Counted from the first letter of the stretch, positions 292 to 59,100 are shown. The stretch: 64,000 bases of DNA from an uncultured Thermodesulfobacteriota bacterium (GCA_964478545.1 CAYZIS010000001.1:7943-71942), one strand, 5' to 3'. Notes: generated from the sequence alone by a model not told the origin. Made by a program: numbers and translations.

Positions 292-543
292 TAGACCTTC
301 TACCTTCAGCCTTTCACCTTGTACCTTGCACCTTATACCTTTCTCCTATATAATGGTGCTCATAGAAAATCTGGAACCTGTGATCCTGAGTTAGTCAACT
401 AACTCAACTTTCTGAGTTGCATTGTCGGGAATACATGACAGGATGTTCGGGCTTGGCTCATAGCCGTGTCCGCCGACAGGCAGGGCTGTTTTTAGAGCAA
501 CTCAAAAAGTTGGGTCAACTAATCGACAACGTCTCTACCGCCT
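292..543 (+). repeat. Family-1 composite intergenic repeat. ACCTTNN heptad array 292-345, CAACT-N5-AGTTG hairpins at 401-420 and 496-511, core 439-493 ('CAGGATGTTCGGGCTTGGCTCATAGCCGTGTCCGCCGACAGGCAGGGCTGTTTTT').
   Basis: The core recurs at 2938, 6450, 13034 (reverse complement), 32680 and 42193. The element fills the whole gap between the PMM stop and the HK start. Confidence 0.8.
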
Positions 544-2689: not shown

Positions 2690-3035
2690 AAATAAAGCAA
2701 TTAGCTTTTAGCCATTAGCTATTAGTTTATGATTACAGATACCTACCCATTAAATATTGTTACTAATCAACGTAAAGCCTTGATTTTTAAAAGCTAAATG
2801 CTAATGGCTAACTGCTAATCACCTAACTTGTTTTACTATGCCATCAGTTTTCTGACTTCTGGATAAATAATTGTAATATATTGAAATCATTAATTTTTTG
2901 TTTATCAATATCTCACGTTTATAAAGCAATTACCTAAGGATGTCCGGGCTTGGCTCATAGCCGTGTCTGCCGACAGGCAGGCCATGGGAGACCGGCGAGA
3001 ATGAGCGAGAGCCATGCCGGGACATCATCAAGAAC
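2690..3035. repeat. Family-1 repeat, arm + short-hairpin core variant. TTAGCNN heptad arms at 2690-2745 and, inverted, 2790-2830. Core 2938-3026.
   Basis: Core 'GGATGTCCGGGCTTGGCTCATAGCCGTGTCTGCCGACAGGCAGG...GAGAATGAGCGAGAGCCATGCCGGGACATC' matches the ends of the long form at 42193 but lacks its central segment. Confidence 0.75.
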
Positions 3036-3108
3036 AATTACTTACTTTACAGATGTGTGGCCGCAGCAAGCGGACTGAAAACGCTTTTCACCAAAGAAAG
3101 CATCAACA

Positions 3109-5451: not shown

Positions 5452-6357
5452 TTAAGCCGGCAACGGCAAAGGGTTCGCCCCGCGACCTTTTCCCGTCAAA
5501 AACTTTTTATTACGCCGACGGACCTCGTCCTGCAAAAAACTAATCTGTTCATCGGTGAGGTTCTTGTAACGACCCTGGACCTGAAAATAACTGGCAAGGG
5601 GTTCATAGGTTTCCGGGACATAGGTCAGTTGTAGTTCATTATCTTTATTCTGCTCCAAGAGCGGGAAGATTCCCGTTTCCACCGCCAGCCGGGTTACCTC
5701 CAGGGATGCCGATGAATCCAGTTTCCACCCTACAGGGCAGGCCGCCAGCAGGTGCAGAAAGCGAAAACCGCTCCGTTTTTTGGCTTTTTCAAATTTTGCC
5801 ATAAAGTCTTCAGGATAAGCGATGGTGGCGGTAGCCAGGTAACTTGGCCTGTGGGCTTTAATAATGGAAATAATATCTTTCTTCTCATATTCCAGTTCTT
5901 TGCCAGCCGGAGTAGTGGTTGTCCAGGCCCCCGGGGGAGTGGCCGAAGAGCGCTGGATACCGGTATTCATATAGGCTTCATTATCATAGCAGACATAAAG
6001 AAAATCTTCATGCCGCTCCGCCGCCCCGGAAATCGCCTGCAATCCGATATCAAAAGTTCCGCCGTCACCAGCCCAGACCACAACCGTCACCTCCTGGCGC
6101 CCCTGGGCCAATAACGCCCGCCGGACACCGGAAGCACAGGCGGCCGCAGTAGCGAAAGGAACATGGAGAAGAGGCACCGATACTGCCGTCGTCGGCAGGC
6201 CGCCGACAATAATTGAAGTACAACAAGCGGGCAACACCACAATGGTTTGTTCGCCCAGCATTTTCAGGGCATGACGCAGACTCAGCGATGCCCCACAACC
6301 AGGACAGGCCATATGACCGGTATGAAGATATTCAGCGGTGGTAACGTTCCACAACAT
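5452..6357 (-). CDS. porB: 2-oxoacid:ferredoxin oxidoreductase beta subunit (TPP-binding), locus 1
   Basis: 'GHMACPGCG', 'GDGGTFDIGLQAISGA', '[18 protein letters not shown]'. Paralog of the ORF at 49735-50670. Confidence 0.88.
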   Translation of the reverse strand: MLWNVTTAEYLHTGHMACPGCGASLSLRHALKMLGEQTIVVLPACCTSIIVGGLPTTAVSVPLLHVPFATAAACASGVRRALLAQGRQEVTVVVWAGDGGTFDIGLQAISGAAERHEDFLYVCYDNEAYMNTGIQRSSATPPGAWTTTTPAGKELEYEKKDIISIIKAHRPSYLATATIAYPEDFMAKFEKAKKRSGFRFLHLLAACPVGWKLDSSASLEVTRLAVETGIFPLLEQNKDNELQLTYVPETYEPLASYFQVQGRYKNLTDEQISFLQDEVRRRNKKFLTGKGRGANPLPLPA

Positions 6358-6575
6358 GGATAAATCCTTTCGATTTTAGCTGCTAGCTATCAGCTGTTAG
6401 CTTTTAGTAAAACCTCAACTTTCTGACTTTCATGGCCAAAAATACATTACAGGATGTTCGGGCCTGGCTCATAGCCGTGTCCGCCGTGCCTGCCGGCAGG
6501 CACGGCGACAGGCAGGGCTGTTTTTAGAGCAACTCAGAAAGTTAAGCTTGTGCTTTCAGCTTTATACCTTTAGCC
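6358..6575 (+). repeat. Family-1 composite repeat inserted between porA and porB. TTAGCTN heptads 6361-6395, core 6450-6526, ACCTT-type heptads 6545-6575.
   Basis: Contains a perfect palindrome 'GTGCCTGCCGGCAGGCAC' followed by a T-run. Occupies the entire 218-bp porA-porB gap. Confidence 0.8.
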
Positions 6576-7745
6576 TCAAATCCAGATAGTTTCGCTAGTC
6601 GACAGCTCCTCAGCCTGCATGGCAATCTGCTCGATGACTTCCGGAAAGACCTCTTTCCCCCCCAGACTGATAATGACATCATGAACTGCCGGGCGCTCAT
6701 CTTCTTCGTACAGTGCAGCCCGCACTTCCTGGGAAACGGTACCGCCAACCCCGAATGAAACCGCCCGGTTCAAAACAATCAGCCGTTTTATCCCAGAGAC
6801 CAGCCGCGCCAGTTCCCGGCTGGGGAAAGGCCTGAACAGACGCAATTTAAGCAAACCCACAGGATGGCTGTCCTGGCGTAAACGATCAACCGCCACCCGA
6901 ACCGTACCGGTCAGGGCCCCGGAACAACAGAAAATAATTTCCGCATCATCACAACGGTAAGCCTCAAGATGTTCATAACTTCGACCAAAACGCTCGGCAA
7001 ACTGCCGGCAGCCATCAGCCAGGATATCCCCGGCATCTTCCATCGTCCTGGCAATATTTTTTTTCAGCTGATAAAAACCATCCGGAAAGGCGGCAGCGGA
7101 AAAAGAACGGGGATCATCGGTATCAAGGAAATACTGAGGCCGGTAGGGAGGCAGAAAGGCATCCACCTCCTCAGCCGCTGGCACCATCAACGGCTCCATC
7201 GTATGGGAAAGGATGAAACCATCAATCATCACCATCACCGGCAGCAAAATCCGTTCACTTAACCAGTAAGCCTGAATAATGGTGTCCAGAGCTTCCTGGG
7301 CAGTCTCACAATAGATCTGCAGCCAGCCCACATCACGTTGTGACAGGCTGTCACTCTGGTCACACCAGATATTCCAGGGGGCGCCCAGGGCCCGGTTGGC
7401 ATTAACCATCACCAGCGGCATCCTCGCACCGGAAAACCAGTGGAGCAGTTCATGCATCATCGCCAGCCCTTGTGAACTGGTGGCCGTAAACGACCGACTG
7501 CCAGCGGAAACAGACCCTAAGCAGGCGGCTATGGCTGACATTTCAGATTCCACCTTGATAAACTGGCAGGGAAATTCCCCCCGGTCGACCATTTCCGACA
7601 GGATTTCGATAATATGGGTTTGCGGTGTAATGGGGTAGGCCGAAATTACCTGTGGGCGGCAAAGCCTGACCCCATGAGCAACGGCATCACTGCCCATCAT
7701 CATTTCCCTGGACGATTTTTCACCAGGCTTTAATTCACCCTGCAT
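6576..7745 (-). CDS. porA: 2-oxoacid:ferredoxin oxidoreductase alpha subunit, locus 1
   Basis: '[15 protein letters not shown]'. Full alpha-subunit architecture. The start abuts the stop of the upstream fusion gene. Confidence 0.88.
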   Translation of the reverse strand: MQGELKPGEKSSREMMMGSDAVAHGVRLCRPQVISAYPITPQTHIIEILSEMVDRGEFPCQFIKVESEMSAIAACLGSVSAGSRSFTATSSQGLAMMHELLHWFSGARMPLVMVNANRALGAPWNIWCDQSDSLSQRDVGWLQIYCETAQEALDTIIQAYWLSERILLPVMVMIDGFILSHTMEPLMVPAAEEVDAFLPPYRPQYFLDTDDPRSFSAAAFPDGFYQLKKNIARTMEDAGDILADGCRQFAERFGRSYEHLEAYRCDDAEIIFCCSGALTGTVRVAVDRLRQDSHPVGLLKLRLFRPFPSRELARLVSGIKRLIVLNRAVSFGVGGTVSQEVRAALYEEDERPAVHDVIISLGGKEVFPEVIEQIAMQAEELSTSETIWI

Positions 7746-9960: not shown

Positions 9961-10050
9961 TATTTACAATTTTAGCGGCATGAGTCCTTGAAAAACAGGC
10001 AATCGAGCATCAAAAATGCTGTAATCAGTTCTAGTTCAAAAAATGCAGGA
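9961..10050 (+). repeat. Family-4 conserved ~95-bp element, copy A, forming the 5' leader of porG on the minus strand
   Basis: Aligns over ~90 bp with 46350-46470. Hairpin AGCAT-TTTTG-ATGCT shows compensatory change to AGCGC-TTTTT-GGCGCT in copy B. Confidence 0.5.
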
Positions 10051-10265
10051 TACCTAACCAGATATCAATGATTATTTTTCACAAAAGCATCATGCTTACA
10101 GTGAAAAATAATGCAGAAAAAACAAAATATCAAGGAAAAAGTCCAAAAATCACTAAGAAAAAAACCTTGAAAAAAACGCCATTTTATGAGATAGCCAGCT
10201 TTGTACGAAAAGGCAGGAGAAATATTTTCCCTCATCGATATCTAATTTTTTCAAGGAGATTCGTA

Positions 10266-11570
10266 ATGAAAAAAGGCCTTCTGGTTATTATGTTCTTTGC
10301 TCTGTTGGCCGCTTCCGGCTGCAACTCGCACATACCCTTCTTTGGCGATAAAAAAGTGGAGCAGGACGAACCGGTGGTTCAGGAAACCACCCAGAATGCC
10401 GTCGAACAACCACAATACAGTGGTGCGGCACCGGCAAACCAGCAGCAGTCATGGCAGGGACAGACTGGACAGCAGCCTTATTATGGCAACACCCAGGGCA
10501 GCCAGCAGGCACCCTATAACGCCTATAATTACGGCGTTCCGGCTGCTTCACCCAGCCCGGGATACCAGAACCCCTATGGTGGAGCGACAGCACCGGCCCA
10601 ACCATACCAGCAACAACCGGGAATATACGGGAAGCAGGCGCCGGCTTACGGCAACCAGGCGCCGATAGCCGGCAACTATGGCCAAGCACCAGCAAGCAGC
10701 TATGGCAGTTATGGTGCCGCTCCTGCCTATACTCCAGCTCCCATGCCCGGCCAGTACCATGCTCCAACCGCCACCTCGGGGATCTATGGCAACCAGCAGA
10801 ACGCAGCCCTTTCCCCGACCCCAGGATTCATCAGCACCACCAGGATGGGAGATTCCTTCGCTTTTCAGGGCATCAAACGAAAAATTGTCTTTATTATTCA
10901 TTACCCCCAGCGAGGCCTGACCACTACTCCTCTCGATCAGTTCAGCCAAAAGATCTATGGCCAACTGGCGGCGGCCCCTGGAATTCTCTTACTGCCGAAA
11001 GAGGCAGTCAGCACCTATGTCAGCAACCACCAACTGTTCATTGACTCCCTGGAAACCAGGACCAAGCTGGCAAAACTGGGGCGGGAAATGGGTGCCCATG
11101 TGGTTATTCTGGAAAAAGTCAAGTTCCTGTCCCCACCACAACCGGGGGGTGAAGGCAACTATCAGCTGAACCTGGAAGCAATTGATGTATCCTCGGGTTA
11201 TCCTCTCAAAACCTATGCTATCCAAGGCAATAGTTACCAGGCAACCCCATCAGTAGATCAGGTTATCTCGGACCTGTCTGGAAATTTGAAAATGATCGAC
11301 TGGTATTCACGGTTGATCAAAGTTGACAAGGGACGGATTTTTGTCAATGCCGGACGCCTCAGCGGCTTGCAGATAGGCCAGAAATTACGGGTTTATGCCA
11401 AGGGCTCGGACGTTGTTGACCCGGCCACCAAGATGTCTTTGGGCAAAGCCCAGGGAGTAATGAAAGGAATTGTTAAGGTTGCCGACTTTTTTGGCATGGA
11501 CGGAGCAATTTGCGAAATCGTTTCCGGTAAAGGTTTTGCCGTTGCTGACATGATAAAAGCAGTGGAATAG
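10266..11570 (+). CDS. hypothetical lipoprotein with a long Gln/Tyr/Pro/Gly-rich low-complexity linker and a C-terminal globular domain
   Basis: AGGAGA RBS. Signal 'MKKGLLVIMFFALLAASGC'. About 150 aa of 'QQPYYGNTQGSQQAPYNAYNYG...' low complexity. C-terminal 'DFFGMDGAICEI' motif shared with the next gene. Confidence 0.6.
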   Translation: MKKGLLVIMFFALLAASGCNSHIPFFGDKKVEQDEPVVQETTQNAVEQPQYSGAAPANQQQSWQGQTGQQPYYGNTQGSQQAPYNAYNYGVPAASPSPGYQNPYGGATAPAQPYQQQPGIYGKQAPAYGNQAPIAGNYGQAPASSYGSYGAAPAYTPAPMPGQYHAPTATSGIYGNQQNAALSPTPGFISTTRMGDSFAFQGIKRKIVFIIHYPQRGLTTTPLDQFSQKIYGQLAAAPGILLLPKEAVSTYVSNHQLFIDSLETRTKLAKLGREMGAHVVILEKVKFLSPPQPGGEGNYQLNLEAIDVSSGYPLKTYAIQGNSYQATPSVDQVISDLSGNLKMIDWYSRLIKVDKGRIFVNAGRLSGLQIGQKLRVYAKGSDVVDPATKMSLGKAQGVMKGIVKVADFFGMDGAICEIVSGKGFAVADMIKAVE

Positions 11571-12916: not shown

Positions 12917-13268
12917 AACCTAAGCTAAGCAATTAGCTGTTAGCTATCAGCGTTTAGCTTTAAAAAATCAAGGCATTACGTTTATTAGCAACTCAACGTT
13001 CTGACTTATTTTAAAAACAGCTAAAAAAAATTCCAGGAATGTTCCGGCATGGCTCTCACTCATTCTCGCCGGCTATCCATGGCCGGCTTCCGAGGCGTCC
13101 GCCGTCAATCACCATCCAGGTGATTCGTTCGGCGGCCAAAACCGGCAGGCTGGGTAGACACGGCTATGAGCCAAGCCCAAACATCCTGTAAGGTCCCTGG
13201 CAATACAAGCCAGAAAGTTAAGATTAAACTAATAGCTAACGACTAACTGCTTGATTCAGGAGGAAAAC
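12917..13268 (-). repeat. Family-1 composite repeat, long-form core in reverse orientation. Core 13034-13178, heptad arms 12917-12975 and 13205-13250.
   Basis: The reverse complement of the core aligns with 42193-42326, including the internal GAATCACC/GGTGATTC hairpin and the GCCGGCC-ATGGA-GGCCGGC hairpin. Fills the whole gap up to the ilvD RBS. Confidence 0.8.
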
Positions 13269-14999: not shown

Positions 15000-15110
15000 G
15001 CACAGTAAAAGCTTCATATTCGAGGCAGGCAAAACCTGAGTCGTGATGCGTACTTATAGTACGTTGTAATGGCGAAGGTTGCAGCCTAACGAAGAAGATG
15101 GAGCTTTTTA
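15000..15110 (+). repeat. Family-3 conserved ~110-bp element, copy 1 (TGGCACAGTAAAAGCTTCATATTCGAGGCAGGCAAAACCTGAG...GAAGGTTGCAGCCTAACGAAGAAGATGGAGC)
   Basis: Other copies at 17995-18110 (+) and 25440-25560 (-). Conserved GG-N10-GC at the 5' end. Internal hairpin GCGTACT-TAT-AGTACGT. Confidence 0.7.
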
Positions 15111-16008: not shown

Positions 16009-16029
16009 TCATTTTCCTTCTATTTCACC

Positions 16030-16425
16030 ATGAAGATCATGAAGGACATGAAGAAGCGATTCAGCAAACATTCGAATCACATCATTGGATGTGCCATAGA
16101 AGTTCACCGTAATTTAGGTCCTGGGTTGTTGGAATCAATCTATGAACAATGCCTGGCCCAGGAATTCTGGTTAACTGGGATTAATTTTAAGAGACAGGAA
16201 GCTTTACCCATTGAATATAAAGGAATTTACCTGGATTGTGGTTATAGAATTGATTTATTAGTAGAAGATGAAATCATTATAGAAATTAAAAGCGTTAACG
16301 AAATTATCGGCATCCATGAAGCACAAATACTTACTTATATGAAATTAGCCAAAATCAAATATGGACTTCTGATAAATTTCAATGTTACATTGCTAAAAGA
16401 CGGTTTGAAAAGTTTCATTCTTTGA
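16030..16425 (+). CDS. GxxExxY family protein (PD-(D/E)XK-like), flanked by inverted repeats
   Basis: 'GPGLLESIYEQCL', 'YRIDLLVEDEIIIEIKSV', 'HEAQILTYMKLAKIKYGLLINFN'. Flanks 16028-16056 and 16427-16456 are imperfect inverted repeats. Confidence 0.75.
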   Translation: MKIMKDMKKRFSKHSNHIIGCAIEVHRNLGPGLLESIYEQCLAQEFWLTGINFKRQEALPIEYKGIYLDCGYRIDLLVEDEIIIEIKSVNEIIGIHEAQILTYMKLAKIKYGLLINFNVTLLKDGLKSFIL

Positions 16426-16476
16426 TTCTTCATGCTCTTCAAGTCCTTCATGGTAGAAAAAAAAGGAGGATAAATT

Positions 16477-16814: not shown

Positions 16815-17819
16815 ATGACCATTTTAAACCGCACCGAATCATTTTACTGTGCTGACCATCCCAGCCTGCTGTGGGAAATGACCATCTGCCAGAGCTTGGC
16901 CAATGGGGAATCGGCGTATGCCAAGGCATTAGCGGAACCGGCAAGCTATGGCAACCTGGTGGGGAAATACCTGCAGGAAAGTTCAGCGCTGCCGGCACAA
17001 CCTGAAAGCATCATTGAAGTTGGCGGGGGCTACGGCTCACTGATGGCCGGGCTGTTGACTGTGCTCCAGCCGAAAAAGCTGACCATGGTGGATATCTCTA
17101 ATTTTCTGCTTAAACAGCAACAGCAGACCCTGAAAGACAGTCAGGCCGAATTCATCTGCCAGGATATTTTTTCTTTTTTGCCCACCTTGCGGCAACCCGT
17201 GGACTTGCTGATTGCCAATGAGATCATCGCCGACTTCCCCACTGCCACCGGGATTGAACAAAAACTTTTACGGCCGCGTCTGGAAAAGGCGGAATCCTTC
17301 AACCCTGTACCACCGGAAAATCTGAATAAGCTGGATGCCGATGAATTACTCAACGAAGTGGCTCGCCTGATAGCCACCTACCGGCTGGACATCACCGATC
17401 TCCCGGATTTCTTCAATCTCAACCTGGGAGCCCTGCATTTCATCGAACAACTGGCCAAAACTGATATTCAACGAATATTTATTACTGAACACGGCGCTGA
17501 CACCGAATTGCCCTACCCCTTTTCCATCCAGCTGCGGACTTATGAACGGCTGGATAAAAATCCCCGGCAGGTAAAACTTAAAGACCATGATGAATACACC
17601 ATCCGTTTTGACCACCTGGAAGCCGCCGCCAGGAAACTGGGATTTATAGTCCGGCGTTTTCACCTGATGGACCTGCTCCAGGTACGTTTTGATGATGAAA
17701 TCAATTACCTGCTGACCACCGGCAGGCCCACCACCGAAGAACAGGAAATCTTGCTTGAATTTTATGAACACGTGGCGGAATACCAGGGAATGTTGCTGAT
17801 AGCTAGGGAAGGTGATTAG
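16815..17819 (+). CDS. class I SAM-dependent methyltransferase-like protein
   Basis: Motif I 'IIEVGGGYGSLMAGL'. Otherwise unassigned. Confidence 0.5.
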   Translation: MTILNRTESFYCADHPSLLWEMTICQSLANGESAYAKALAEPASYGNLVGKYLQESSALPAQPESIIEVGGGYGSLMAGLLTVLQPKKLTMVDISNFLLKQQQQTLKDSQAEFICQDIFSFLPTLRQPVDLLIANEIIADFPTATGIEQKLLRPRLEKAESFNPVPPENLNKLDADELLNEVARLIATYRLDITDLPDFFNLNLGALHFIEQLAKTDIQRIFITEHGADTELPYPFSIQLRTYERLDKNPRQVKLKDHDEYTIRFDHLEAAARKLGFIVRRFHLMDLLQVRFDDEINYLLTTGRPTTEEQEILLEFYEHVAEYQGMLLIAREGD

Positions 17820-17892
17820 CTTTTAGCCTTTAGCTTTAGAAAACCAAGGCTCTGTGTTAATGAGAAGCAACGCTCAACAGATGACGGCATAC

Positions 17893-17927: not shown

Positions 17928-17994
17928 CAGTGACAATATTATTCTTGACGATGTCTCAGCATATCTCTAACTCATTCTTGCCGGCCATCAATTG

Positions 17995-18110
17995 CAAAAC
18001 CACTGGCACAGTAATAGCTTCATAATCGAGGCAGGTAAAACCTGAGCCATGAGGCGCACTTTACCGGACGCTGCAAGGGTGAAGGTTGCAGCATAACGAA
18101 GAAGATGGAG
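17995..18110 (+). repeat. Family-3 element, copy 2
   Basis: 'TGGCACAGTAATAGCTTCATAATCGAGGCAGGTAAAACCTGAGCC...GAAGGTTGCAGCATAACGAAGAAGATGGAGC'. Confidence 0.7.
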
Positions 18111-18130
18111 CTAGTACGAAGCCAGCAAAA

Positions 18131-20038: not shown

Positions 20039-20310
20039 ACTGACCTCCCCAAGCTAGTGGTTGTCTATGATCATCAGCTCATCCGGAAACAGAAATTTCC
20101 GGGTAAGCACCAATTAAAACATGAATTTAATCACCTATTCCTGTACGGTAAAATCACTGTCCTCCAGCCTTATCAACCACCTCTATAAAGATGCATACAA
20201 TATTGACATTCATAAACCACAAACACCGTTCATGTCAAGAACATATACTCAGTCAATGCTCGTCAGTCAGAATCCGCCAGAATCATATTCATTGCAGAGA
20301 TAATGAACAA

Positions 20311-20562
20311 TTGCACAAAGTCAAACCGGGTTTCACTATCAGTATCATCATCATTTTTCCCTTGACATTTTCACCTTCCCCTTATAAGAAACAATTGCAC
20401 AAAGTCAAACCGGGTTTCACTATCAGTGTCATCGTCATTTTTCCCTTGACATTTTCACCTTCCCCTTATAAGGAGAGATTGCACAAAGTCAAACCGGGTT
20501 TCACTATCAGTGTCATCATCATTTTTCCCTTGACATTTTCACCTTCCCCTTATAAGGAGAGA
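20311..20562 (+). repeat. 3 x 84-bp perfect-period tandem repeat. Each unit carries the palindromes AAACCGGGTTT and CCTTATAAGG plus a TTGACA.
   Basis: Unit starts at 20311, 20395 and 20479. Lies in the divergent region between the two acyl-CoA synthetase genes. Confidence 0.85.
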
Positions 20563-22821: not shown

Positions 22822-22880
22822 ATCTGCCCAAACATCCTGATAATATATCCTGGCAACACAAGTCAAAAAGTTAAGTTCTC
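22822..22880 (-). repeat. Family-1 terminal fragment (partial copy)
   Basis: 'GCCCAAACATCCTGATAATATATCCTGGCAACACAAGTCAAAAAGTTAAG' aligns with 13170-13215. Confidence 0.6.
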
Positions 22881-32621: not shown

Positions 32622-32803
32622 TTTTCACCTCTTCTCCTTTAACCCAAACTTTCTGACTTGTGTTACCAGAATACATTATCAGGATGTTCGGGCCTGGCTC
32701 ATAGCCGTGTCTGCCGGCAGGCAGGCACGCCGGCAGGCAGGGCTATTTTTTCATAACTCAGAAAGTTGAGTTTTAAGTATTTGGGGAATAATAGCCAACT
32801 GCC
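32622..32803 (+). repeat. Family-1 composite repeat (core 32680-32750, flanking AACTTTCTGA hairpins)
   Basis: 'CAGGATGTTCGGGCCTGGCTCATAGCCGTGTCTGCCGGCAGGCAGGCACGCCGGCAGGCAGGGCTATTTTTTC'. Confidence 0.8.
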
Positions 32804-41970: not shown

Positions 41971-42169
41971 GAGCTACTCTCAACCTCCTGTTCGGCGCAT
42001 TTTTCAATGCGCTGGTATTTAATGTGACAAATTAAAACAAGTAGTTAGCCGGAACTGGCTGTTTTTGTCAATTATTTTTTTCTCTTTTAGTAACATACTC
42101 CTGAATTTCTGTCACTCTTTTCAGTACCCCCTTGAGGGGTATAAAAAACAAGAAAATTCCACTTTCCGT

Positions 42170-42330
42170 CTAGCATTGTCGGGAATACATTTCAGGATGT
42201 TCGGGCTTGGCTAGCAGCGGGTTTGGCTGCCGAACGAATCACCAGGACGGTGATTCGCGGCGGACGCCTCGGAGCCGGCCATGGACGGCCGGCGAGAATG
42301 AGCGAAAGCCATGCCGGAACATCCTCAGAA
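42170..42330 (+). repeat. Family-1 repeat, long form (core 42193-42326)
   Basis: 'CAGGATGTTCGGGCTTGGCTAGCAGCGGGTTTGGCTGCCGAACGAATCACCAGGACGGTGATTCGCGGCGGACGCCTCGGAGCCGGCCATGGACGGCCGGCGAGAATGAGCGAAAGCCATGCCGGAACATCCTC'. The left flank 'GCATTGTCGGGAATACAT' is shared with copy 1. Confidence 0.8.
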
Positions 42331-42400
42331 AATTTATTTTGGGTTATGGCCGTTGACCTTCCTTGACCTTTTATACGCCATTTTTGCCGCAGCCAGATTC

Positions 42401-46140: not shown

Positions 46141-46203
46141 CAGGACATGAAGGTCATAAAAATTTTTAGGCAAACTCTTTATGCTTCATGCTCTTCATGG
46201 TAA
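46141..46203. mobile_element. gene-less miniature derived from the GxxExxY cassette ends (GGACATGAAG...CTTCATGCTCTTCATGGTA)
   Basis: 14-mer CTTCATGCTCTTCA + TGGTA is shared with 16430-16456. GGACATGAAG is shared with 16043-16052. Confidence 0.55.
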
Positions 46204-46349
46204 TAACATTTTCAACGTGTTTTACTCAGTACTGTCCGGTATGCTTTTTGCGTCGTGTTCAATATCGGCAACCGGTGCTGTTTCAAGCGCGACATCGTGA
46301 GATGCCGTTGCTTTTCCCGGCGATTGGAGCGTGAAAGTTGCCATGTTTG

Positions 46350-46470
46350 AGCCCTACAGGGCGAGTTTGGCAACTTTAGCGCAATGAGCCGCTGGAAAAG
46401 CAGGCAATCGAGCGCCAAAAAGCGCTGAAATCAGCTCCGGTTGACAGTATGCAACTTTCTAACCAGACAC
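46350..46470 (+). repeat. Family-4 conserved element, copy B
   Basis: 'AACTTTAGCGCAATGAGCCGCTGGAAAAGCAGGCAATCGAGCGCCAAAAAGCGCTGAAATCAGCTCCGGTTGACAGTATGCAACTTTCTAACC' against 9961-10050. Confidence 0.5.
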
Positions 46471-46566
46471 TGCTGTGTTTTACTATGGCATAAACTTTTT
46501 TGCTTGCACCTACGCCGAGTGAGGTTACAATCATGACTATCCCGATCATTATTTTCTCATTATGAA

Positions 46567-58954: not shown

Positions 58955-59100
58955 GGGTCAACTAAATTGAGCTATTAGTTTAATGATTACAGGATTACAA
59001 ACTATCACCCGTTTAGTGCTATCTCTTATTAACGTAACGCCTTGATTTTTCAACGCTAAACGCCAATGGCAAACAGCTAATCGCTAAATCGGGTGCAATT
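58955..59100. repeat. Family-1 heptad-arm module (TTAGCNN repeats in both orientations) without a core
   Basis: 'AGCTATTAGTTTAATGATTACAG...TTATTAACGTAACGCCTTGATTTTT...' aligns with 2700-2830. Confidence 0.65.

Follow-up and report, generated by a model that had tools for sequence, protein, structure and literature searches.

A probable MITE-like family of nested, hairpin-rich intergenic repeats in an uncultured Thermodesulfobacteriota lineage

The DNA analyzed here (the window) is a 64-kb stretch from an uncultured deltaproteobacterial (Thermodesulfobacteriota) lineage, in several of whose intergenic gaps a hairpin-rich repeat, here called Family 1, is found. The genes beside the copies were identified by Pfam or synteny (histidine kinase [HK], ilvD, YqeY, HisF, Rho, and L31). 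The original prediction, made from the sequence alone, proposed a hairpin-rich intergenic repeat family with at least eight full or partial copies. The family is real: a 32-nt core, CAGGATGTTCGGGCYTGGCTCATAGCCGTGTC, occurs five times in the window with three or fewer mismatches (at 439, 2936, 6450, and 32680 on the plus strand and at 13157-13188 on the minus strand), compared with a chance expectation of 0 (100 shuffles). A sixth core copy, at 42193+, has its first 19 nt in common with the core and then continues as the complete long form. An nhmmer profile built from related copies and a covariance model both recovered the same six core copies and no others. The window also contains one 5' fragment, correctly placed near 22822 by the prediction, and one weak remnant. 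The copies and their parts are as follows, where TIR denotes the terminal inverted repeat and rod an imperfect palindrome of ~130 nt that carries two side hairpins, P2 and P3.

395-402, no strand: left copy of the target-site duplication of the first element, octamer TCAACTAA; the identical octamer adjoins both inverted repeats.
403-514, plus strand: complete short-form element in the PMM/histidine kinase gap (core search and TIR pair), made up of the left TIR (403-419), a spacer (420-439), the rod 5' arm with the GGCTCATAGCC hairpin (440-464), a GC hairpin and T-run (465-493), and the right TIR (498-514).
515-522, no strand: right copy of the target-site duplication of the first element, octamer TCAACTAA.
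2937-3028, plus strand: rod with the CGTGTCTGCCGACAGGCAGG module in place of its middle, namely P2 together with one half of P3 (nhmmer; covariance model, 67.5 bits).
6414-6546, plus strand: complete short-form element, with a TIR at each end, that separates the α and β subunit genes of a 2-oxoacid:ferredoxin oxidoreductase, to both of which it is antisense.
12992-13222, minus strand: complete long-form element with the rod at 13036-13187 and an extra 20-nt GC module (nhmmer; TIRs; covariance model, 98.8 bits).
17950-17993, minus strand: weak and degenerate remnant of the rod 3' arm (nhmmer, E = 0.0076; missed by the covariance model).
22822-22875, minus strand: 5' fragment, cut off against a terminator-like hairpin, that retains the left TIR, the spacer, and ~14 nt from the start of the rod.
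32644-32770, plus strand: complete short-form element in the hisF/yqeY gap, antisense to both genes (TIR pair).
42096-42340, plus strand: composite in the rho/rpmE gap, antisense to both genes, in which a TTAG shell encloses a TIR remnant and a full rod (covariance model, 155.7 bits); shell left end TACTCCTGAATTTCTGTCA, hairpin CAGTACCCCCTTGAGGGGTAT at 42122-42142, left-TIR remnant at about 42158-42175, full rod at 42194-42325, and degenerate right end TTTTGGGTTA.

The gap labels given in the original prediction held for PMM-HK, yqeY-hisF, and rpmE-rho, but not for the 6.4-kb copy, which lies between the oxidoreductase subunit genes and not beside ilvD; it is the 13-kb copy that ilvD adjoins.

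In the main stem of the rod, AGGATGTTCGGGCTTGGCT pairs with AGCCATGCCGGAACATCCT, with G-G and T-T as its two conserved mismatches. At its inner end the stem opens into a junction that bears the two side hairpins, P2 (GAATCAC...GTGATTC on a GGCCGCCG/CGGCGG stem) and P3 (GCCGGCC-ATGGAC-GGCCGGC), and the junction is followed by an unpaired and almost invariant GAGAATGAGCGAGAG. The short and long forms and the hairpins GAATCACC/GGTGATTC and GCCGGCC-ATGGAC-GGCCGGC match their earlier description. Natively, the rod is enclosed by 17-bp TIRs, CTCAACTTTCTGASTTG and CAASTCAGAAAGTTGAG, both of which were found in 17 complete copies. Each TIR is a small palindrome in its own right, and the inverted ends of the element read CTCAACTTTCTGA. 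The CAACT-N5-AGTTG hairpins that had been described as flanking the copies are present and correspond to these TIRs, so that they belong to the element itself.

Native units measure ~213 to 238 bp, and all units measured span 112 to 238 bp. Folded as RNA from TIR to TIR, the whole native unit reaches -106 kcal/mol (z, -7.7), and the rod alone reaches -75 kcal/mol (z, -6.2); the opposite strand of the rod folds about equally well. Among the window copies, the 403-514 element folds TIR to TIR with -46.5 kcal/mol (z, -4.2) and the 13-kb copy does so as DNA with a z score of -5.0. Conservation is highest in the TIRs and the rod, and a ~19-nt spacer preceding the rod is among the least conserved parts. 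Copy lengths differ by 1 to 2 nt, and no reading frame is therefore conserved.

The short form (403-514, 6414-6546, and 32644-32770) is the native unit from which the rod has been deleted after CATAGC and rejoined at ...CAGC, the deletion of the rod interior running between two short AGC repeats. It carries a small GC-palindrome module, CGTGTCTGCCGACAGGCAGG, as well as GCTGTTTTT and a T-run. The same module is also found at either junction of long copies (the 13-kb copy of the window and contigs L020 and L033), and the long form has no terminator directly 3' of the stem. Other variants have lost P2 via a GCGGCA direct repeat, have P2 fused with P3 through the common loop CACACGATGTG, or contain an additional palindrome within P2, and hairpin cassettes have been exchanged among copies. 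The copies of Family 1 thus decay and recombine by internal deletion, cassette exchange, and nesting.

The window's rho-rpmE copy and most copies of two metagenome-assembled genomes (MAGs) are housed in a second vehicle, the TTAG shell. Its layout is TTAG, then TRCCTTACTCCTGAAAGGCTGTCA, an optional CTCTTTTCAGTACCCCCTTGAGGGGTAT, and AAAAAACAAGAAATTGTCGGGAATACATTC, then the rod, and then TGATACCTTAATTTGGGTTGCGGGCGTTAAGCCCGCGTTAG. The shell is without inverted repeats, its left and right end hairpins are dissimilar, and it therefore lacks the TIRs that are expected of a miniature inverted-repeat transposable element (MITE). TTAG precedes the left end in 54 of 59 shells. A rodless shell of 115 nt lies directly after TTAG in HyVt-111, one of the two MAGs, and the same TTAG is single and uninterrupted in the window (10242-10245, minus strand). 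Owing to the TIR remnant at 42158-42175, between shell and rod, the rho-rpmE composite is best explained by the insertion of a TIR element into the shell, which now carries it. The rod is preceded by a similar ~19-nt spacer in both of its settings, the TIR-bounded unit and the TTAG shell.

Two further features of the shell were observed. At 6 of the 54 TTAG-flanked left ends (L038, L039, L073, and others), a long ORF lying upstream terminates at the flanking TAG, so some shell insertions lie exactly at a gene's stop codon. The shell hairpin ACCCC-CTTGA-GGGGT followed by ATAAAAAACAAGAAA (window 42121-42157), a common module of the MAG copies, is a weak match to preQ1-I; the tail CAAG could pair with the loop CUUG in this hairpin, but with 5 nt the loop falls short of what the known preQ1-I aptamer needs. 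An assignment of the shell to the IS200/IS605 type (PATE) or to an omega-RNA was considered and rejected, as the end hairpins are dissimilar and no TnpB is nearby.

Evidence for mobility of the TIR form comes from its flanks. Exact direct repeats of 6 to 8 bp abut the TIRs in 5 of the 17 complete copies, compared with 0.11 expected (2,000 permutations of the flanks, never more than 1), and when up to 2 nt of slack is allowed, 8 of 17 copies are flanked by direct repeats, compared with 0.58 expected. The exact duplications are TCAACTAA (window 395-402 and 515-522), TATTGA, CTGATAA, TTTGAT, and TTATGA. A clean duplication is present in only about a third to half of the complete copies.

Empty and filled sites were compared in syntenic regions taken from uncultured relatives whose Rho proteins are 95 to 99% identical to that of the window. 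The rho-rpmE gap measures 430 nt in the window, where it holds shell and rod, and 150 to 155 nt in relatives with 95 to 97% Rho identity; in the relatives with 99% Rho identity, it holds a different, 130-nt MITE with the ends GGGTGTTGCAATGA. No rod was found at this site by the covariance model in the loci of the 95 to 97% relatives or by alignment in the gaps of the 98 to 99% relatives. The hisF-yqeY gap, 182 nt with a short-form copy in the window, is 9 to 41 nt in relatives L166 to L168. Conversely, the murA-hisD gap is 29 nt in the window and 302 nt in L168, where it contains a complete TIR element. In the gap between the ferredoxin and RNase PH genes, the window has a third repeat family beside a single TTAG, L168 and L169 have shell and rod on the plus strand, L166 has them on the minus strand at another position, and L167 has nothing. 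These four sites differ in occupancy among genomes with 95 to 100% identical Rho.

Further differences in occupancy were found relative to HyVt-111, whose coding DNA is 83 to 91% identical to that of the window. The rod at 2937-3028 is embedded in a block of ~226 nt (about 2861-3086) that is missing from the orthologous HyVt-111 site (alignment with L074). The 6.4-kb site is occupied in both genomes, by the short form in the window and by the long form in HyVt-111, and here the 5' arm of the rod is nearly unchanged while the surrounding shell has diverged. Because filled sites face empty or differently filled ones at 95 to 99% Rho identity, and do so in both directions, the elements have moved recently. 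Metagenome contigs searched by Rho gave nothing closer than 80% identity and therefore provided no orthologous sites; these were obtained through exact-protein look-ups.

The family is not limited to one locus. In a collection of species-representative genomes, the 19-nt core was found in more than 84 contigs among the matches listed, almost all of them in two MAGs, DQWO01 (HyVt-111) and JAOZRP01 (GMC6.concoct.48_sub); among the same listed matches, a few contigs come from six other MAGs of similar sediments, and two are chance matches in unrelated genomes. A contig end lies within 250 bp in 57 of the 86 core matches listed. With the covariance model, rods were found only in loci of relatives with at least 95% Rho identity, with none in about 56 kb from relatives with 85 to 88% Rho identity and none in about 360 kb from relatives with 71 to 80%. 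The core and rod are absent from the viral contigs searched, in which the TIR 17-mer has 10 matches, about the chance level by estimate. The nearest named genus to the host by Rho is Desulfarculus, at 79% identity.

Several other repeats reside in the same intergenic regions. Arm-only modules at 17820-17885 and 58955-59100 had been assigned to Family 1 together with the heptad arms beside its copies; both assignments failed, as these modules form a separate repeat family (Family 2) with heptad arms and an AACGTAA.GCCTTGATTTTT center, which also exists without the Family 1 core at 2688-2820. In Family 2, inverted arms of three to five TTAGCTN heptads enclose a center of ~60 nt with a CACCC-N3-GGGTG hairpin. 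Its copies lie at 2688-2820, 12920-12985 (minus strand), 17803-17885, and 58955-59095, with heptads alone at 6356-6413. The long-form Family 1 element at 12992-13222 is nested within the Family 2 element upstream of ilvD, which makes Family 2 the host of a Family 1 copy at 12.9 to 13.2 kb. Heptad counts are not the same in the window and at the orthologous site of HyVt-111. Directly after the PMM stop codon, at 295-352 and within the 292-543 interval of the original prediction, there is a separate array of about seven ACCTTNN heptads, and shorter relatives of it lie at about 6556-6580 and 42350-42375. Intergenic direct repeats of the heptamer TAACTGA have been described in marine Beggiatoaceae, cyanobacteria, and Bacteroidetes (PMC4679880). 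They resemble the heptad arms alone, in being short tandem arrays of 7-nt units whose copy number varies between orthologous sites, but the units here are TTAGCTN or ACCTTNN, with inverted arms around a conserved center, and occur in a deltaproteobacterial lineage that is absent from the list of hosts in that paper (PMC4679880).

The third, noncoding repeat is ~250 nt long, with the ends ATACTGTC..CCGG and CCGGACAGTACTGAG; the window contains it at 46221-46480 (minus strand) and as a fragment at 9987-10016. It was also found in L002 (2869-3117) and beside rods in L015, L058, and L061, and it is 87% identical to the copy of another MAG. This repeat occupies the ferredoxin-RNase PH gap of the window, where the relatives have a Family 1 composite or nothing. 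The fourth, MITE-like element (~130 nt; inverted ends GGGTGTTGCAATGA) lies at L183:2790-2920 and in L184, in the rho-rpmE gap of genomes with 99% identical Rho. Since this is the site of the window's Family 1 composite, the rho-rpmE gap is an insertion hot spot.

Family 1 is a noncoding, inverted-repeat-bounded, target-duplicating element that is polymorphic between strains. Its copies are shorter than ~500 bp, lack coding capacity, end in TIRs, duplicate their target, and are dispersed in large numbers with presence/absence polymorphism, which are features by which MITEs are recognized. In all likelihood, Family 1 is a nonautonomous, MITE-like DNA transposon family mobilized by a transposase encoded elsewhere. 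Such an enzyme, probably of the DDE type, would recognize the TIRs and mobilize the TIR form in trans, and insertion would take place in AT-rich intergenic DNA with duplication of about 6 bp of the target; the 7- and 8-bp duplications are compatible with chance extension of 6 bp. A scan of 30 window ORFs revealed no transposase, the rest of the window being syntenic with annotated housekeeping genes, and a search for an autonomous partner gave no TIR pair 450 to 4,000 bp apart in 591 kb of related DNA. The TTAG shell would move by a mechanism other than that of the TIR form, duplicating or targeting TTAG, and a TIR copy nested in this unrelated, TTAG-flanked shell without inverted repeats is now carried along by it. 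Family 1 elements are also located within or next to at least two other repeat families, which makes the intergenic regions mosaics. Effects on the host would be by-products: transcripts would contain very stable hairpins, and the short form, when in one of its two orientations, might terminate transcription by means of its terminator-like hairpin and T-run.

We found no description of these repeats in the literature, and no Rfam family matched, in keeping with the statement in the original prediction that the sequence was not a recognized one. The comparison to BOX, Correia, and BIME elements made there is supported by the nesting, the TIRs with target-site duplications, and the presence or absence of copies at orthologous sites. 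Given the null result of the literature search and its likeness in logic to ERIC, Correia, and BIME elements, the family is new in sequence and of a well-known type, with a mosaic and nested organization.

The nearest known systems were compared by description only. ERIC/IRU elements of Enterobacteriaceae and Vibrio are intergenic imperfect palindromes of ~130 bp that form one long hairpin, with internal deletions leading to shorter forms, insertions at fixed points leading to longer ones, and copy numbers that vary strongly from one related genome to another. Family 1 likewise is noncoding and has a palindrome of ~130 bp, length variants, and a variable copy number. It differs from ERIC/IRU in sequence and host, in having the palindrome inside an extra pair of 17-bp TIRs, and in its duplications of ~6 bp instead of TA, its two side hairpins, and the second shell as a carrier. 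Correia elements of Neisseria (CREE/NEMIS) are high-copy-number intergenic MITEs of 100 to 150 bp that are often cotranscribed and form an RNA hairpin; they have 26-bp TIRs, a TA duplication, an integration host factor (IHF) site, and promoter elements in their ends. They share with Family 1 the character of a TIR-bounded MITE whose length variants arise from internal deletion, whereas the TIRs of Family 1 are 17 bp long and of other sequence, its duplications are 6 to 8 bp, and neither promoter-like sites nor an IHF site was seen. In BIME and REP/REPIN-RAYT systems, short palindromic modules form mosaic intergenic clusters in varying combinations, as they do here. REPs are ~35 bp long, with a GTAG-type tetranucleotide and no target duplication; Family 1 units, in contrast, measure 130 to 240 bp, with TIRs and duplications and no GTAG beside the palindrome. 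BOX and RUP of Streptococcus pneumoniae are small modular noncoding repeats with a stable predicted structure and no transposase of their own. Family 1 resembles them in being modular, small, noncoding, and structured, but it does not have the boxA/B/C type of order, and its modules are nested insertions and deletions of distinct elements.

The main alternative is that the rod is a selected structured noncoding RNA, either a multicopy small RNA (sRNA) or a cofactor or guide of a mobile enzyme, which the shells merely spread. Its working parts would be the three-way-junction fold and the invariant single-stranded GAGAAUGAGCGAGAG segment. The very stable fold of the rod is consistent with this reading, but the opposite strand folds as well. 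In the consensus structure, pairing holds in 98.1% of cells and double changes affect 8 pairs, above both controls, yet these changes lie in two cassettes that were swapped as blocks (alignment columns 37-38/72-73 and 88-91/100-103) and so represent few events. By our own tally of the pair table, one-sided changes number about 30 G-U versus 21 A-C, an excess that is nonsignificant, with nonindependent copies, and that therefore does not identify the strand of action. The presence of the rod in two unrelated shells, always behind the similar ~19-nt spacer, and the nearly unchanged 5' arm at the orthologous site whose shell has diverged also speak for selection on the rod, as does an interior that is better conserved than the spacers and more ordered than the interior of a neutral MITE needs to be. 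Against it, consensus scans of four copy-bearing gaps revealed no sigma-70-like promoter before the rods tested, and few parts of the element are as poorly conserved as the spacer. Large internal deletions have been tolerated and have spread, as in the short form and the P2-less form, and loop sequences, including GGA motifs, differ between cassette variants.

Neither the genomic context nor the databases favored a functional RNA. Copies show no orientation bias with respect to the flanking genes (14 ++, 10 --, 8 -+ [divergent], and 7 +- [convergent]), and two of the three short window copies are antisense to the operons they interrupt. An all-against-all comparison of the ORFs beside 82 loci gave no recurrent protein neighbor, only response regulators. 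At gathering thresholds, Rfam found only a tRNA in the whole window, and at an E value of ≤10 on 42080-42400, the best hit was preQ1-I with 18.8 bits (threshold, 39), which fell on the shell and left the rod without a match. Taken with the preceding evidence, we regard an RNA role for the rod as unlikely. In a wider version of this claim, which seems to us similarly doubtful, selection acts on the rod as a structured RNA or as single-stranded DNA, and two mechanistically different shells transport it as cargo. If this were so, the rod could be, for instance, a family of regulatory RNAs acting in trans or a cofactor of the mobilizing enzyme, and a cargo role would explain why the fold and GAGAAUGAGCGAGAG are near invariant across MAGs while the shells drift. 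Only if the rod were a functional RNA would the family constitute a new class of biology.

Specific candidates were also rejected individually: an sRNA gene driven by a promoter of its own (the scans gave no consensus sites, and the spacer is variable), a riboswitch (preQ1-I at 18.8 bits, with a 5-nt loop that is too short and a motif that is part of a dispersed repeat), a CsrA/Rsm sponge (GGA motifs are present in hairpin loops, but the loops vary between cassette variants), an IS110 bridge RNA (the target is constant over only 4 nt, and the rod is without large programmable internal loops), and an integron attC array (copies lie in both orientations between housekeeping genes, and no intI was seen).

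Another alternative is that Family 1 is of the REP/REPIN type, in which single-stranded DNA hairpins are moved by a domesticated Y1 (RAYT) transposase and not by a DDE enzyme acting on inverted repeats. The copies are palindromic, strictly intergenic, and numerous, the main stem has the conserved G-G and T-T mismatches, and the TTAG shell is without inverted repeats and bounded by a fixed tetranucleotide, all of which would suit such a system. We nevertheless consider it very unlikely, given that REP/REPIN mobilization makes no target-site duplications, whereas the TIR form has duplications of 6 to 8 bp. Moreover, there is no conserved GTAG beside the palindrome, and at 130 to 240 bp the units are larger than REPs (~35 bp) and REPINs (~100 bp). 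The hairpin at the left end of the shell is unlike that at its right end, and neither in the window nor in the loci was a RAYT gene seen.

That the copies are host terminators, attenuators, or operators kept by selection site by site, and not mobile DNA, is exceedingly improbable: although the short form ends in a GC hairpin and T-run, and the 403-514 copy lies in sense orientation between two codirectional genes, the other two short copies are antisense to their operons, the family as a whole has no orientation bias, a simple terminator scan does not call the GC hairpin and T-run of the short copies, and orthologous sites in near-identical genomes that are entirely without elements already contradict it.

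As a MITE-like family, Family 1 accounts for long intergenic regions in this uncultured lineage of hydrothermal and seep sediments, and also for its fragmented MAGs, because two thirds of the core matches listed lie at contig ends. Insertion sites that vary among genomes with 95 to 99% identical Rho can serve as strain-level markers. The family is also a tractable example of MITE nesting, with the core of one element comobilized by another and internal deletions leading to new subfamilies. Very stable, sometimes terminator-like hairpins are placed within operons (rho-rpmE and the oxidoreductase subunits), where they could alter expression.

A few observations concern other parts of the window. 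At 16022-16458, a gene for a 131-amino-acid PD-(D/E)XK protein (PDDEXK_3, GxxExxY type) lies between inverted repeats of ~30 bp built of 9-mers (CATGAAGAA three times and TCTTCATGC three times), of which there is a solo copy at about 46190-46215; the arrangement resembles a small mobile cassette. Four genes, for an ARMT1-like phosphatase, the PD-(D/E)XK protein, a HIT protein, and a methyltransferase, are bracketed by a 52-nt direct repeat whose copies, at 15054-15105 and 18061-18112, are 85% identical. Between two divergent acetyl-CoA synthetase genes, an 84-bp unit is repeated three times in tandem with 95% identity (20310-20562), and the presence of TTGACA ... TATAAG in every unit points to a possible triplication of a promoter region. 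An ORF of 500 amino acids at 10068-11570 has no Pfam match. Its start is probably near 10272 and not at 10068, since a ribosome-binding site and ATG are conserved there in the alignment with HyVt-111, and the stretch upstream of 10272 is repeat-filled intergenic DNA.
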